Shown here: positions 5,795 through 31,781 of the stretch, in pieces
Layout: each line of letters starts with the position of its first letter
Position numbering within the stretch: the first letter of the stretch is position 1
NCBI RefSeq assembly: GCF_034380315.1
Contig: NZ_JAXMPB010000012.1
Coordinates: 21,055-85,054 of the forward strand
Source: Sphingopyxis sp.
Lineage (GTDB): Bacteria; Pseudomonadota; Alphaproteobacteria; Sphingomonadales; Sphingomonadaceae
Direction of reading: 5' to 3'
DNA: 64,000 nucleotides
The notes under the pieces: generated by a model
Database searches by the model: none
What the model was told of the DNA's origin: nothing
The model's input: the letters and a program-made list of their open reading frames with translations, nothing else
Position numbers and translations under genes: made by a program

Positions 5795-6712
5795 TCACAC
5801 GCCAAGGTCCGCCCGCACCGCGCGACCGTCGGCCCACGCCTCGATCAACTTGGCGAGATCGGCATCATCGGCCGGAATATCGACCATCAAGCGAACAAGC
5901 TGGTCACCGCGCCCGCCGCCCTTTTGCGAAAAGCCCTTGCCCTTGAGCCGCATCACCTTGCCCGAGCTGGACCCGGCGGGGATCGACAGCATCACGGGCC
6001 CGTCGACGGTCGGCACCTTGATCTTTGCGCCCTTGACCGCCTCGGTCAGGGTAATCGGCAGGTCGAGGCGAATATGGGCGCCCTCGCGCACGAAAAAGGG
6101 GTGATCGCGCACGGTGATCGTGACGATCCCGTCGCCATGACCGCCCGGCCCCGCCTGTCCCTTGCCGGCCAGCCGCATCTGCGTGCCGGTTTCGACCCCG
6201 GCCGGAAGTTTGAGATCGATGGTCCCGCCATCGGCCAGTGTGATGCGTTGCGGCGCCTGGGTCGCGGCATCGACGAAATTGACCGCCAGCCGATAGGCGA
6301 CGTTCGCACCCTTTGCCGGGGGAGCGCTGCGCCCGCCGAAGCCGCCAAAGGGATTTCCGCCGCCACCCCCACCGCGACCAAACAACCCTTCGAAAATGTC
6401 GCCGAAATCGGCCCCTTCGCCGCCGAAGCCGCCCTGGCTGGCGCGCGGATCGCCGCGAAACCCGCCACCATAGCCATAGGGCATGGCCGGATTGCCGTCG
6501 CCGTCAATCTCTCCGCGGTCGAACTGCGCCCGCTTCGTCTTGTCGGACAGCAGGTCATAGGCCTTGGTCACATCGGAAAAGCGTTCCGCCGCCTTCGGAT
6601 TGTCCTTGTTCCGGTCGGGGTGCAATTCCTTTGCCAGCTTGCGATACGCCGATTTGATCTCGGCCTCGCTCGCGCTTTTCGCCACGCCCAGGGTGGAATA
6701 GGGATCTGCCAT
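5795..6712 (-). CDS. DnaJ-class chaperone (J domain, G/F region, DnaJ C-terminal domain, no Zn finger; CbpA-like)
   Basis: DPYSTLGV...LHPDRN J domain; Gly/Phe-rich linker; C-terminal GKGF...GDQLV. Confidence 0.92.
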   Translation of the reverse strand: MADPYSTLGVAKSASEAEIKSAYRKLAKELHPDRNKDNPKAAERFSDVTKAYDLLSDKTKRAQFDRGEIDGDGNPAMPYGYGGGFRGDPRASQGGFGGEGADFGDIFEGLFGRGGGGGGNPFGGFGGRSAPPAKGANVAYRLAVNFVDAATQAPQRITLADGGTIDLKLPAGVETGTQMRLAGKGQAGPGGHGDGIVTITVRDHPFFVREGAHIRLDLPITLTEAVKGAKIKVPTVDGPVMLSIPAGSSSGKVMRLKGKGFSQKGGGRGDQLVRLMVDIPADDADLAKLIEAWADGRAVRADLGV

Positions 6713-24442: not shown

Positions 24443-24561
24443 TTCCCCTTCCGCCCACGGAAGGGGAAGCAAGAGCGGCGCGTTCGCTCGCCAGTCGCGA
24501 CGGGGCGGGCCATCCGCGCTGTTGCCGGCCCACCCCCAACCCCTTCCGCTAGCGGGAGGGG
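24443..24561. repeat. Double-hairpin REP-like element (CCCCTCCCGC..GCGGGAGGGG family)
   Basis: Hairpins TTCCCCTTCCG/CGGAAGGGGAA (24443-24468) and CCCCTTCCGCT/AGCGGGAGGGG; 24527-24561 is 33/35 identical to 29165-29199. Confidence 0.85.
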
Positions 24562-27134: not shown

Positions 27135-28184
27135 ATGAAGATATTGATCGTCAGCGACGCCTGGGAACCGCAGGTCAATGGGGTGGTCCGCACGCTGCAG
27201 GCGACGCTCGCCGAACTGCGCGTGGCGGGGCATGAGGTCGCGGTGATTTCGCCCGGCCTGTTCCGGTCGGTCCCCTGCCCCACCTATGGCGAAATCCGCC
27301 TCGCGCTGGCCGGCGCGCGCAGCGTCGGGCGGCATATCGCCGCCTTTGCCCCGCAGGCGATCCATATATCGACCGAGGGACCGCTGGGCCTGGCGGCGCG
27401 GCGCTGGTGCTTGCGCAACCGCTTTCCCTTTACCACCGCCTATCACACGCGCTTTCCCGAATATGTCGCGGCGCGCCTGCCCGTCCCGCCCGCGCTGGTG
27501 TGGCGTTTCATCCGGTGGTTCCACCGCCCGGCGCAGCATATCATGGTCGCAACGCGCAGCCTGGCACGCGAGCTGGCCGAACAGGGCCTGCCGCAGACGA
27601 TGATGTGGGAACGCGGCGTCGATCACGCCCTGTTTCGCCCCGACCGTGCCGCCCACCCCGCCCTTGCGGACCTGCCCCGCCCCATCCAGCTTTATGTCGG
27701 GCGCGTCGCGGTCGAGAAGAATATCGGCGCCTTTCTGGACACCGCGCATCCGGGAACCAAGGTGGTGGTCGGCGACGGCCCGGCGCTGGCCGCGCTTCGC
27801 GCCCGCCATCCCGGCGCCGTCTTTCTGGGCAAGCTGGGCGGTGACGATCTTGCCGCCGCCTATGCCGGGGCCGATGTTTTCGTGTTTCCCAGCCGCACCG
27901 ACACATTCGGGCTGGTGGTGATCGAGGCGCTGTCGTGCGGAACCCCGGTCGCCGCCTATCCGGTACCGGGACCGGGCGATATCGTGACCGGCGGCGCCGG
28001 CGCGCTCGACGAAAAACTGGGCCATGCCATCGCCCGGGCGCTGGCCTGCGACCGCGCCGACGCCGCGGCGCTCGGCGCCCGCTATAGCTGGGCGGGATGC
28101 ACGGCGCAGTTCGTCCGCGCGCTGACCTTTGTACCGGGCGATCCACTGCCCGGCACCGCCGCGCCGCTCGGCGTCGCGGCCTGA
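27135..28184 (+). CDS. GT4 glycosyltransferase, Agt-like glycolipid synthase
   Basis: MKILIVSDAWEPQVNGVVRTL, HISTEGPLG, YVGRVAVEKN, FPSRTDTFGLVVIEALSCG. Confidence 0.9.
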   Translation: MKILIVSDAWEPQVNGVVRTLQATLAELRVAGHEVAVISPGLFRSVPCPTYGEIRLALAGARSVGRHIAAFAPQAIHISTEGPLGLAARRWCLRNRFPFTTAYHTRFPEYVAARLPVPPALVWRFIRWFHRPAQHIMVATRSLARELAEQGLPQTMMWERGVDHALFRPDRAAHPALADLPRPIQLYVGRVAVEKNIGAFLDTAHPGTKVVVGDGPALAALRARHPGAVFLGKLGGDDLAAAYAGADVFVFPSRTDTFGLVVIEALSCGTPVAAYPVPGPGDIVTGGAGALDEKLGHAIARALACDRADAAALGARYSWAGCTAQFVRALTFVPGDPLPGTAAPLGVAA

Positions 28185-28237
28185 ACGGCGCGGTTTCCCG
28201 ATCGGCGGAAGGCCGGTTTTGGGGTGGAAAGCGGACA

Positions 28238-28687
28238 TCAGCCGCGTAATTTTTGACGCTGCCAACTTTCTCGACGAGCTAGGTGAGAGATCGATTTGAA
28301 GTAGCTCGTCCCTGCCCAGAGGTAATAGACTAGAATGGGCCCAAGGATGAACGCGGCTACCCAGAAATTGTCCCGCAAGAGATTGTAACCGCCGCTGCCT
28401 AAGAGCACAGCCGCGGCGCCGAAACAACCTAGATAGCCGCATCGGAACAATGCCCCGAGTGGGCTGAATGCCCGTCGCTCGACGTCGTCGCTGTCCTGAT
28501 CAAAATACAGTGCCCCAATTCGCGCTGCTGCCTGAGATGTCGACGCTTCGACACCCGCAGCAAATGCAATGATGAACAGCGCCCATGCCACTGGAGTTTC
28601 GTCAAATAGGAGCCGCGCGCCTACACTCAGCGTGAGTGCTATTCCCGCCACAAGCCACAGAAAATTTGGAGAACGGTGATCAAGCAT
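28238..28687 (-). CDS. Low-GC hypothetical membrane protein (about 4 TM, 149 aa)
   Basis: ATG 28687 in track ORF 28238..28804; spot GC 52-55% in lines 28261, 28321, 28561 vs 68-85% in lines 27961-28081. Confidence 0.7.
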   Translation of the reverse strand: MLDHRSPNFLWLVAGIALTLSVGARLLFDETPVAWALFIIAFAAGVEASTSQAAARIGALYFDQDSDDVERRAFSPLGALFRCGYLGCFGAAAVLLGSGGYNLLRDNFWVAAFILGPILVYYLWAGTSYFKSISHLARRESWQRQKLRG

Positions 28688-28798
28688 GGTGTGAGTGTGC
28701 CCCGTTACACCAATGTCCGCAATCGGTCGTTTCCTGCCATTCAATCCAAATCGGTGGTGAACGGCGACTTTGGGGGGCAAGCGGACGTTGCCCTCCTT

Positions 28799-28890
28799 CG
28801 TCATCCAGGACTTGATCCGGGATCCCGCTCTTTTGAGGCGCGGATCGCCTTCGATCTCAAGCGGGACCCCGGATCAAGTCCGGGGTGACG
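28799..28890. repeat. REP-like inverted repeat (CGTCATCCCGGACTTGATCCGGGATCC family)
   Basis: 31-nt arms CGTCATCCAGGACTTGATCCGGGATCCCGCT / AGCGGGACCCCGGATCAAGTCCGGGGTGACG. Confidence 0.9.
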
Positions 28891-28947
28891 ATGATGGATA
28901 GGTCAACTTCCGGTCGCAACCGCTCGCTAGCCGACGCACCTCCTTTT

Positions 28948-29030
28948 CCGTTCGTGTCGCGCGAAGTCGAGACACCCATCGATGCGGCGCCCGGCCCGAG
29001 GGGCATCTCGACTTCGCTCGATGCGAACGG
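28948..29030. repeat. REP-like inverted repeat (CCGTTCG..GAAGTCGAGA family)
   Basis: 25-nt arms CCGTTCGTGTCGCGCGAAGTCGAGA / TCTCGACTTCGCTCGATGCGAACGG. Confidence 0.9.
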
Positions 29031-29124
29031 GTTGAGGAGGCGGAGACGGCGGCTTCGGGGTCGTTTGCTGCCATGCGATCCAGATCGGCATGAAAAGCCG
29101 AAATGGCGTGGTCGGCTGCCCCGT

Positions 29125-29199
29125 TGCGCAAGCGCAGCGGGGTGGGCAAGAGCTCACCGCGGCTGGCCCACCCCCAACCCCTCCCGCTTGCGGGAGGGG
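29125..29199. repeat. Partial REP-like element of the CCCCTCCCGCTTGCGGGAGGGG family
   Basis: GGGGTGGG...CCCACCCC stem and terminal hairpin; 33/35 identical to 24527-24561. Confidence 0.85.
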
Positions 29200-29264
29200 A
29201 GAAGCGTGGCCGCAACCGGCCATGTAGCCGGCGCGGCGAACAGTCCGGGCGCGAGGGACAGGGG

Positions 29265-31781
29265 CTAGAAGGTCTTGCGCCATTCCAGCTCGATATAGCG
29301 GCCCAAGGGGTCGATATAGCCGGGTTGGTAGTTCAGCGGCACCACGCCATTGCCGTCGGTGATCCGCCGCTGGGCATCGAACAGATTGTCGACCGACAGG
29401 CGCAGGCGCGAGCCCTTGAGGAAGGGCAGATCCTCGGTCAGTTTCGGCATCTGGTTGAAATCGGCGAAGACGCGCAGGTTGAATGTCGCGAGGTCGCCGA
29501 AATTCAGGTCGCCATTCGCGCCGCCGACGATGCGGCTGCCGCTGTCATATTTGGCGCTGATCCGCCCGCCGATGCCCTTGTAGAACAGCCCGCCGTCGAG
29601 TTCGACCAGATGACGGCTGCTGCCGCCGCCCGTACCCGTTGCCGACCCGTTCAACAGATCGAGTTCGGGTACGCCGGGACCGATCATGATTTTATCGGTC
29701 AGCCGGACCGTGTGATAGAGCCCGACCTGCCAGCGCCCGCCCTGCGGCCGCCCGAACATGCCGCGCGGGCCGCCGCGCCCGCCGAAGCCGCGCCCCGTGC
29801 GCGGACCGCGCGGGGCATCGGCAGCGGGGGGCGGCGGCGCAGCGCCTTCCCCTGCGGCGGCAGCGCCGGGCCGCGCGCCGCGCGCGCGCTCCCCGCCCGA
29901 GCCGGGGCCACCGGCATCGGAACCGGCGCCACCCGAACCGCCACCACGGGGTCCGCCGCCGCGGCGTCCCTGCGCCTCCGGCTCGCCGAAGCTGCCGTTC
30001 ATGTTGAAGCCCCAGCGGACCTGCGAATTGGTTGCGCGGTCGAAATTGACCGGCCGCTGGTCGAGCGCGATCAACACGCCATTGCCATCGCGGATCGCGC
30101 GTCCCGGAAAGGCCGCCTCGATCTCTGGCGTGAGCAGGGGAAAGCCGTTGGCGGTATCGTCGCTGCGGTTGCGGTTATAGTCGACCGAAAAGCGCAGCCC
30201 TTCGACCATCGGCAGTTCCCAGTTGAGCCCCAGTTTGAAATCGCGGCGCCGTTCGGCACGCAACAAGGGATTGCCCCCCGTCGTCGTCGTGATTTCGACG
30301 GTCTGGCCGGTCGCGAAATCATAATAGGTCACGCCCGGCGTCACCAGCGGCGCGGCGCCGAGCTGGGTGACGCTGGGGGCGGCCTCGTCATTCTTGAAAC
30401 TGGCGAGCAGCGACAATTTGTCGGTGATGCCCCAGTTGAGCGTCGTGCCCCAGCTGGTCAGCGCAGAAAAGTCGCTCGGCCGCTCCGCCTGGGCGTTGAG
30501 GGTCAGCGACATGGTGCCGAAATTCCCAACCTCATATTCGGGATCGAACAGCGGAATGGTCAGCGATCCGAACACATTGGGGGTGTCGCGCGACAGGTCG
30601 CTGGCCGTGACCGTGCCGCCGCGTTCGGCGCGGCTGTCGTAGCGCAGACCCGTATATCCCCCGGTGATCGAGGCGCGGATCGGCCCCGCCCAGCCGTCGA
30701 CGACGCTGCCCGAAATATTGGCGTTGGACCCGAAGCTCTGGCTGCTGCTGTCGAAACGGTCGCGCGTGCCGCCTGCTCGGTCGGTGAAGGTGCGGGTATC
30801 GGCATCCGAATAATTGCCGGTGACCGACCAGCGCCAGTCGCCGATCATGCCGTTGACGCTGGCCGAGCTGGTCCAGTTCTGGCTGCGGCTGTTGCGGCGG
30901 AGCGGATCGCCCGCGCCGCCAAGTCCCGCCCCGAGCAGGCTGAGGCTGTCGGTCTGGTCGAAGCGCAGGCTGATCGAGGCGTCGGTCAGCTTGTCGATGT
31001 TGCGCATGAGCGTGCCGTCGATGACATAGGTGTCGGTCGCGGCAAGCAGACTGCGGTCGGACGATCCCAGGCCGCGCTCGCTTTCGAGCAGCATCCCCTT
31101 GCTTTCCCACCCGGCGTTGAGGTTCACCCGGCCGTTGGCGCCGATCGCCATGAAGGCCGGTTCAAGCTCGCTTTGGAACCGGCCGCCCTGCGTCGCGAGC
31201 CCGGCCTCTCCCTCCAGCGACATTTGCCGGAAATTCGACTTGAGCACCAAATTGACCACCCGTTCGGTCGCCGCATAGCCATATTGCAGCGCGACCTCTT
31301 CAGGGAAAATCTCGACCTTGGCGATCGCCTCGGGCGGGATGTTGCGGATCGCGCCAAAGCCCGCGACGCGGCGGCCATTGACCAGCATCACCGGCCGACC
31401 GCCGCCCCGACCGCGCCCCGACCGGGTCTGCGGTTCGAGCGCGGCCACCAATTCCTCAACCGACGAGGCGCCATAGCTGGCGATCGTCGCTTCATCGAGT
31501 TCGGCCTCTGCCGCGATATCGGTATCGAGTTGTCCCGCGAGGCGCGGCGCGGTGACGACGATCTCATCCTCTTCGGGTTCATATCCGTCGTCGGCCGGTG
31601 CCGCGGCGCCCTGGCCCGTCTCGGCGGGCTGATCGACCGCCGCGACCGCCGCCAGCGACGCGCCTTGCGCCATAGCGGGGGCCGCCAGACATGCGGCGCC
31701 CGACAGCATCACAGCCCGGGCCGACAGGGAAAGGGGGATGACTTTCATGGGGAGAGCAATTTCCTGTTCGATTGATTTCAT
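29265..31781 (-). CDS. TonB-dependent receptor-like outer membrane protein
   Basis: Signal peptide, EIVVTA TonB box, IAKVEIF plug, C-terminal YIDPLGRYIELEWRKTF; start may be 31748. Confidence 0.9.
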   Translation of the reverse strand: MKSIEQEIALPMKVIPLSLSARAVMLSGAACLAAPAMAQGASLAAVAAVDQPAETGQGAAAPADDGYEPEEDEIVVTAPRLAGQLDTDIAAEAELDEATIASYGASSVEELVAALEPQTRSGRGRGGGRPVMLVNGRRVAGFGAIRNIPPEAIAKVEIFPEEVALQYGYAATERVVNLVLKSNFRQMSLEGEAGLATQGGRFQSELEPAFMAIGANGRVNLNAGWESKGMLLESERGLGSSDRSLLAATDTYVIDGTLMRNIDKLTDASISLRFDQTDSLSLLGAGLGGAGDPLRRNSRSQNWTSSASVNGMIGDWRWSVTGNYSDADTRTFTDRAGGTRDRFDSSSQSFGSNANISGSVVDGWAGPIRASITGGYTGLRYDSRAERGGTVTASDLSRDTPNVFGSLTIPLFDPEYEVGNFGTMSLTLNAQAERPSDFSALTSWGTTLNWGITDKLSLLASFKNDEAAPSVTQLGAAPLVTPGVTYYDFATGQTVEITTTTGGNPLLRAERRRDFKLGLNWELPMVEGLRFSVDYNRNRSDDTANGFPLLTPEIEAAFPGRAIRDGNGVLIALDQRPVNFDRATNSQVRWGFNMNGSFGEPEAQGRRGGGPRGGGSGGAGSDAGGPGSGGERARGARPGAAAAGEGAAPPPPAADAPRGPRTGRGFGGRGGPRGMFGRPQGGRWQVGLYHTVRLTDKIMIGPGVPELDLLNGSATGTGGGSSRHLVELDGGLFYKGIGGRISAKYDSGSRIVGGANGDLNFGDLATFNLRVFADFNQMPKLTEDLPFLKGSRLRLSVDNLFDAQRRITDGNGVVPLNYQPGYIDPLGRYIELEWRKTF

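Follow-up and report, generated by a model that had tools for sequence, protein, structure and literature searches.

Putative mobile gene cassettes with hairpin-forming ends at a glycosyltransferase-receptor gene junction of Sphingopyxis sp.

Results

The window analysed here is a 64,000-nt stretch covering positions 21055-85054 of contig C12 of a 3.9-Mb Sphingopyxis draft genome (GC 63.8%), and it contains a 1,080-bp interval that separates two convergent genes, one for a GT4-family glycosyltransferase (GT) and one for a TonB-dependent-receptor-like (TBDR-like) protein. We lean towards reading this interval as a lineage-specific insertion of small mobile cassettes with hairpin-forming ends. 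Comparisons within and between genomes show conserved ends, variable cargo, the same cassette at several locations, empty sites and some structural conservation of the repeat formed by the ends, which we call X. An earlier note on this DNA had described six co-oriented palindromic units, A to F, alternating with a cargo gene and three modules, REP1 to REP3, and had proposed the units as sites of a cassette-shuffling system. This proposal holds in so far as cargo moves with its flanking units, but the boundaries look graded and no recombinase was found. Positions given with no contig name are those of the window.

All six units were recovered at the positions claimed for them. However, they are halves of a larger repeat, X, an imperfect hairpin of ~77 nt, and the idea of six recombination sites of equal rank was rejected. 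X is present in three copies of the same orientation, namely A (from which an internal part is missing), B+C and E+F, and D is a fragment only. X consists of a left arm (XL, ~20 nt, consensus AAyGTCCGCAATCGGTCGTTT), a right arm (xR, ~20 nt, consensus CTTTGGGGTGGrAAGCGGAyrT) and, between the two, a centre of ~35 nt. The XL and xR ends differ, having only an inner 8-nt inverted repeat in common (GCGGACAT/ATGTCCGC). Copy 1 (28190-28238, + strand) is unit A, with an xR arm TTTGGGGTGGAAAGCGGACAT at 28218-28238 that matches the consensus exactly. Copy 2 (28712-28789, + strand; nhmmer E 2e-18), made of B, a linker and C, has its XL arm at 28712-28733 and, after the centre, its xR arm at 28768-28789; four near-identical copies of it exist in the genome. 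Copy 3 (29045-29125, + strand; nhmmer E 3e-7), made of E, a linker and F, is diverged, forms a direct repeat with B and has a compensated outer stem (GGCGGC/GCTGCC). Both linkers measure 19 nt and the cores of B and E agree at 26 of 30 positions (87%), as originally described; A and C agree at 73% over 22 nt.

Unit D (28899-28927, + strand) is an XL-like fragment (TAGGTCAACTTCCGGTCG), after which comes a duplication of CAACCGGTCG, and lies within a linker, L (28895-28946), that recurs with REP1 and REP2 in seven copies. At C1:418536 the start of D runs on into a full X, and locus L082 has the order xR-H1-GTCCGCAATCGG, H1 being REP1. A seventh unit, GTGGCCGCAACCGGCCATGTAGCCGGC (29206-29232, + strand), follows REP3 and is XL- or L-like, judging by eye from its likeness to linker L (GGTCGCAACCGGTCGCTAGCCGAC). 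In the whole genome we counted 14 X copies plus isolated xR arms. The matches in the window far exceed those of shuffled windows: two for the xR motif, one for the XL/E motif and two for the SRM arm motif described below, against 0.00 expected for each. An "empty" xR-XL palindrome was searched for and none was found, only an unrelated GTCCGCTT palindrome family.

Between X copies 1 and 2 lies cargo 1, a gene for a 149-aa predicted membrane protein (28238-28687, - strand) with 55% GC, as against 63.8% genome-wide. The gene's TGA stop (reverse strand, 28238-28240) overlaps the xR arm at the last base of A, confirming what had been noted before. The protein has no Pfam or NCBIfam match and only 17 homologues in a large protein collection; given the ratio of nonsynonymous to synonymous substitution rates against homologues (dN/dS 0.15-0.48), cargo 1 is considered a real gene. 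A conserved 24-nt leader (28688-28711, - strand) separates the XL arm from the start codon and is kept in seven of seven aligned cassette copies, with no sigma-70-like promoter detected in it.

Cargo 1 is one of several. At five of the eight X loci of this genome, a segment of 476-1059 nt with low GC (53-56%) is enclosed by X or xR units of one orientation, and the contents are unrelated: the 149-aa membrane protein in the window, a 209-aa secreted protein (cargo 2) at C1:411-412 kb, a 211-aa protein at C1:418-419 kb, where the array also has a nuclease (ssn) cassette between X units, an Imm11 immunity protein at C2:557-559 kb and a 718-nt segment at C1:156-157 kb. Furthermore, nine of the 14 X matches adjoin a 450-nt segment of at most 56% GC where 1.6 would be expected at random sites, and none of 2000 simulations reached nine. 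The orientation of the cargo relative to the X units is mixed. The Imm11 cargo (C2:558050-558760) matches PF07791 with an E value of 3e-10, a hint that polymorphic-toxin immunity genes travel as X cassettes.

The same cassettes are found in other surroundings in other genomes. Homologues of cargo 1 occupy five other contexts, namely YgjP-PBP in S. panaciterrae, beta-lactamase-TBDR, EamA-DUF3011 and two metagenome contexts. In all of them xR abuts or closely follows the stop codon, XL lies ~25 nt upstream of the start, and the homology between copies fades just beyond the two arms. Moreover, occupancy is reciprocal between two species: in S. panaciterrae the GT-TBDR junction is empty, with overlapping stop codons (L003), and the YgjP-PBP junction is occupied by cargo 1 (L105), whereas in this genome GT-TBDR is occupied and YgjP-PBP measures ~40 bp only. 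The TBDR-like gene is syntenic in seven other Sphingopyxis species; in five of these the GT and TBDR-like stop codons overlap each other, leaving an empty junction, and in the other two, S. bauzanensis and S. indica, the interval is differently filled, by unrelated hairpin inserts. The GT-TBDR junction is a hot spot for hairpin inserts. Behind the cargo-1 cassette of two different genomes (L105 3470-3750 and L106 3480-3760) comes a further repeat module, …CTTCAAATAGGyCTTTCCTACATTATCCGGC…, with another xR arm at its end; a fragment of it is seen in our own genome at C4:14240-14300, beside one of the composite blocks described below.

Cargo 2 has nine homologues in four contexts, with an xR arm after the stop codon in every homologue examined. 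Its XL arm is clear in our genome and L232/L235 but has diverged in L236, and only a GGACAT remnant of it is left in L237/L238; the L232/L235 copy is a minimal cassette formed by the arms only. Contig L109 displays an array of three complete X copies and two further xR arms, all co-oriented and with small open reading frames (ORFs) between them, while X-bracketed low-GC ORFs are also present on L110, L124, L223 and L230, and a single X adjoins a low-GC ORF on L227 and L194. The metagenome loci come from a scan that chose 120 loci by the xR motif itself, most of them chance or xR-only matches and ~8 informative. The units do bracket low-GC variable genes, as the earlier note had anticipated, and on the three points by which it had offered to be judged (enrichment at gene boundaries, variation of the interval and the shuffled control) the results came out in its favour.

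The fold of X was next considered. In 22 members of the X family, from this genome and metagenome contigs, the nested stems reported for B-C pair in 79% of cells, compared to 27-49% with slid partners, and the covariation score of 0.212 lies above the 0.149 of shuffles and was reached by none of 500 shuffles, although related sequences that lack structure can exceed this control as well. Compensated variants of the outer stem are GTCCGC/GCGGAC, GGCGGC/GCTGCC and CGACA/TGTCG. RNAalifold alone predicts almost no consensus structure for X, and for this reason the structure is only moderately supported: the hairpin geometry appears to be kept, with some compensatory changes. As read from the sequence, X has AAyGTCCGC/GCGGACrTT for its outer stem and internal loops of ~15 nt per side, and it has no RYYYAAC/GTTRRRY cores. 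With cores and spacing both wrong on this reading, X was rejected as an attC site. An IS200/IS605-like origin of X was rejected as well, the genome having no Y1 gene and the individual arms not being hairpins.

Positions 28712-29092 form one ~380-bp composite, X-REP1-L-REP2-X, which occurs at six genomic loci with 89-97% identity and a fixed order and orientation. The other five are C1:419351-419730, C1:411200-411509, C1:157435-157758, C2:557558-557938 and C4:13923-14237, and there are partial copies too. It is the commonest dispersed repeat of at least 250 bp in the assembly, and is matched in 129 of the 136 genomes of the genus, many of which have matches to REP2 alone.

REP1 to REP3 are not neutral spacers. 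Single-domain GIY-YIG nucleases named Ssn cut single-stranded DNA beside hairpin repeats (NTS/SRM) that flank their genes, and Sphingomonas and Rhizorhabdus are named as SRM-rich (Chenal et al. 2025, Nat Commun; PMC11893778). REP1 (28798-28891) contains an inverted pair of such Ssn-related motifs, at 28799-28827 (+ strand) and 28862-28890 (- strand) with a 30-nt spacer, within an inverted repeat whose 32-nt arms are 91% complementary. Each arm consists of CGTCAy, a hairpin and TCC, and both fit the published degenerate SRM pattern HGTCWYN(0-2)YYVSBRHN(0-5)WNVSBRGN(0-2)RNCYNB (PMC11893778). At C1:418191-418490 and again at C5:169271-169570, the same arms (33 nt, inverted) stand on either side of a GIY-YIG gene, whose 100-aa product is single-domain (PF01541, E 1.8e-9) with UPF0213 BH0048 as its nearest solved structure (E 1e-3). 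Because both arms fit the SRM pattern and bracket a GIY-YIG gene elsewhere, REP1 reads as an inverted SRM pair without its gene, that is, a gene-less SRM-ssn-SRM cassette, which is a known kind of element.

The arm-gene-arm unit with ssn is also present in Sphingopyxis sp. FD7 and in Sphingobium yanoikuyae, as well as on contigs from metagenomes, in a different neighbourhood each time; inverted arms around the gene were seen at L094 (the FD7 locus), L097, L099 and L239. A ~100-aa single-domain GIY-YIG gene between inverted SRMs is common to the published system, this genome and other sphingomonads. Likewise, the repeats cluster here by variable membrane, secreted and immunity genes, as NTS do in Neisseria (dRS3/NIME arrays). 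In contrast, units A to F, being parts of X, are not SRMs, and X was rejected as an SRM since it does not fit the pattern; it brackets cargo genes that move with it, for which nothing comparable is described in PMC11893778, and only ~20 true SRMs are present in this genome. The C5 copy of ssn is 95% identical to the intact one, has an in-frame TAA within the GIY motif (TIY*VG), and is still SRM-bracketed and then followed by L-REP2. In Sphingopyxis sp. FD7 (L094 2452-2839) the SRM-ssn-SRM unit lies between large terminase and portal genes, in a head gene cluster like that of a gene transfer agent (GTA) or a prophage, with a further SRM upstream. At the S. indica GT-TBDR junction (L006, ~6560-6650), beside an XL-like motif, there is a pair of SRMs with arms (CGTCATTCCCGCGAAAGCGGGAATCCAG) that show no difference from the NTS consensus of Neisseria.

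REP2 (H2, 28948-29030) is a hairpin repeat forming an inverted repeat with 34-nt arms, of which ~17 solo pairs were counted in the genome, and belongs to a genus-wide family; a partner gene for it was sought in our genome, in 104 local loci and in plasmids, and none was found. REP3 (H3, 29119-29199) comprises a hairpin CCCCGTTGCGC..GCGCAGCGGGG, an inner pair GGGGTGGGCA/GCCCACCCC and a hairpin CCCCTCCCGCTTGCGGGAGGGG. At one other locus only, C3:428802-429232, a gene for a 131-aa DUF559 protein (PF04480, E 8e-36) stands between the same arms (CCCCTCCCGCnnGCGGGAGGGG with GGGGTGGGCA), and REP3 represents a DUF559 nuclease cassette in gene-less form. A second REP3-type pair (CCCCTTCCGC..GCGGGAGGGG) is located at 24445-24561, ~2.6 kb upstream of the glycosyltransferase gene. 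It looks like an old, retained insertion, since a pair stands at the matching position in six of seven other Sphingopyxis loci (L001-L004, L006, L007; not found in L005).

As for the flanking genes, the left one (27135-28184, + strand) encodes a 349-aa GT4-family glycosyltransferase (Pfam PF13439/PF13692/PF00534) and the right one (29265-31781, - strand) an 838-aa TonB-dependent-receptor-like outer-membrane protein with a weak Plug domain match below the Pfam cut-off. The latter gene contains ~300 nt at 85% GC (29700-29999) encoding a low-complexity Gly/Pro/Arg/Ala-rich segment. An Rfam scan of 27500-30000 gave only chance-level matches to microRNAs and small RNAs, and a scan of the interval for sigma-70 promoters and intrinsic terminators found none.

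Discussion

The reading of the interval as hairpin-ended mobile cassettes, which we hold to be somewhat likelier true than false, can be laid out as follows. Each cassette would carry an xR arm on one side and an XL arm on the other, and where two cassettes abut, XL, the ~35-nt centre and the xR of the next would together make up the 77-nt imperfect hairpin X. In the window, a first slot, between xR and XL-type units, would hold the real, foreign-looking membrane-protein gene, a second REP1 as an empty Ssn cassette whose XL-like end is followed by an intruding REP2, and a third REP3 as an empty DUF559-nuclease cassette. Cassettes may be inserted de novo at gene 3' junctions in a process dependent on single-stranded DNA or hairpins and driven by an enzyme acting in trans, and recombination within X would reshuffle them later. 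Nicks would probably come from the genome's Ssn-type GIY-YIG and DUF559 nucleases, each at its own hairpins, and the 380-bp composite may serve as a homology anchor for incoming DNA.

Several results weigh against this reading. No recombinase was found in the window, as the earlier note had stated, and no enzyme could be linked to X. Of the HUH genes that the note had suggested looking for, the Y1/RAYT type (PF01797) has no match in the genome, and the positive controls matched. Nothing resembling intI or attI lies beside the arrays, the window's flanks being the GT and TBDR-like genes (this concerns adjacent genes, no genome-wide intI search having been made), and the C1 arrays sit among trpS, ubiB, ubiE, mutM, rpsT and dnaA, named by eye from their translations; an island with its own machinery between two C1 arrays was rejected, the genes there being housekeeping genes. 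No multi-copy insertion sequence (IS) was found in the assembly. The ssn cassettes of three other genomes are without X arms, so that Ssn need not be the enzyme of X, and neither Ssn nor DUF559 is tied to X. The identity between cassette copies declines gradually across X with no single drop point, and neither target-site duplications nor exact junctions are legible, because the empty sites come from diverged species. On the same side stand the RNAalifold result, the leniency of the shuffle control and the choice of metagenome loci by their xR motif, all given above.

The main rival explanation, which is possible but on the whole unlikely, is that of portable homology, as for the NIME and minimal mobile elements of Neisseria. 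Here X, REP1 and REP2 would be selfish repeats that, once dispersed, act only as homology anchors; DNA from transformation or gene transfer agents would integrate beside the 380-bp composite by homologous or homology-facilitated illegitimate recombination, Ssn would trim incoming single strands at its motifs, and no dedicated cassette recombinase would be needed. Indeed, in four cases with different cargos the cargo adjoins the 380-bp composite, whose copies are 93-97% identical, at its X side each time, with a short xR alone on the far side. The decay of identity across X is graded, and homologous recombination among X copies is for that reason no less plausible than a site-specific process. 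Furthermore, Ssn limits the integration of motif-bearing transforming DNA in Neisseria (PMC11893778), and one ssn copy lies within the GTA-like head gene cluster of Sphingopyxis sp. FD7. However, minimal cassettes with ~20-nt arms occur at junctions without any other repeat (L232/L235 and the left end of L105), and junctions that measure 0-40 bp in relatives became occupied, which requires a homology-independent step. We keep such an insertion step in the cassette reading because of these arms-only copies and occupied junctions, and assign to homologous recombination the later shuffling, because of the graded identity and of the four cargos on one side of the composite.

According to a second alternative, the interval is a plain repeat mosaic, a pile-up of unrelated hairpins, resembling repetitive extragenic palindromes (REPs) or MITEs (miniature inverted-repeat transposable elements), at a permissive convergent-gene junction in the manner of bacterial interspersed mosaic elements (BIMEs), with X having no role in movement and the low-GC ORFs being independent horizontal acquisitions in the same permissive spots. 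With REPs, BIMEs and the REPIN doublets associated with RAYT transposases, the interval has in common an intergenic mosaic of palindromic units with a fixed grammar and conserved linkers, doublet hairpins, and partner genes flanked by their own repeats; and with MITEs and cargo-carrying non-autonomous elements, conserved short ends around content that varies, occurrence at several genomic sites and the lack of an internal transposase. Unlike the REP-type systems, however, this genome is without a RAYT, the partner genes encode hydrolytic nucleases (GIY-YIG, DUF559), and the units measure 80-100 nt, some with protein-coding cargo; unlike those of MITEs, the ends of an X cassette differ from each other apart from an inner inverted repeat of 8 nt, and neither a known parent IS nor a legible target-site duplication goes with them. 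The other hairpin inserts at the GT-TBDR junction in S. bauzanensis and S. indica, the genus-wide matches to the composite, which are mostly to its REP1 or REP2 parts, and the lack of an enzyme for X all suit a mosaic. It does not explain why two unrelated cargo genes keep both arms in the same register, the stop codon abutting xR, at four to six unrelated loci each, nor the strong enrichment of low-GC segments beside X, and this explanation, already disfavoured, we consider decidedly improbable.

X cassettes resemble those of integrons, including clusters of attC sites lacking integron-integrases (CALIN), in that co-oriented imperfect hairpins separate promoter-poor, low-GC and mobile ORFs (as in the array on L109), the ORF stop overlaps the site, part of the site is kept at each cassette end, the same cassette occurs in different arrays and a nested-stem geometry is kept. 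Nevertheless, a true integron-type system, in which X would be a divergent attC acting as folded single-stranded DNA under an IntI-like tyrosine recombinase encoded elsewhere, is highly improbable, given the missing attC cores, internal loops far larger than a ~5-nt spacer, the mixed cargo orientation, the scatter of single cassettes over the chromosome among housekeeping genes and beside other hairpin repeats with no integrase or attI platform nearby, and complete integrons being, as reported by Cury et al. 2016, absent from Alphaproteobacteria.

A bolder form of the cassette reading would make the XL/xR cassettes a previously unrecognised, integrase-free gene-cassette system of Sphingomonadaceae, which we advance as a speculation and regard as rather unlikely. 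Single ORFs, encoding membrane, secreted and immunity proteins or small nucleases, would lie between two ~20-nt ends that fold, together with the end of a neighbour, in an attC-like way; cassettes would enter at gene 3' junctions and be swapped in single-stranded form; and hairpin-specific hydrolytic nucleases, Ssn-type GIY-YIG or DUF559, would with host repair take the place of a recombinase. In the literature that was searched we found no described cassette or repeat system of sphingomonads beyond that of Chenal et al. 2025 (PMC11893778).

If the cassettes move as the comparative data suggest, Alphaproteobacteria would own a route for the capture and shuffling of single genes, and this route would be connected with the hairpin repeats, as yet poorly understood, that fill their intergenic regions. 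It would account for many false "hypothetical proteins" in the genomes of sphingomonads and for breaks in their assemblies. Moreover, it would provide a testable link among the newly described Ssn single-strand nucleases, DUF559 nucleases and the way in which accessory genes for membrane, secreted and immunity proteins are acquired.

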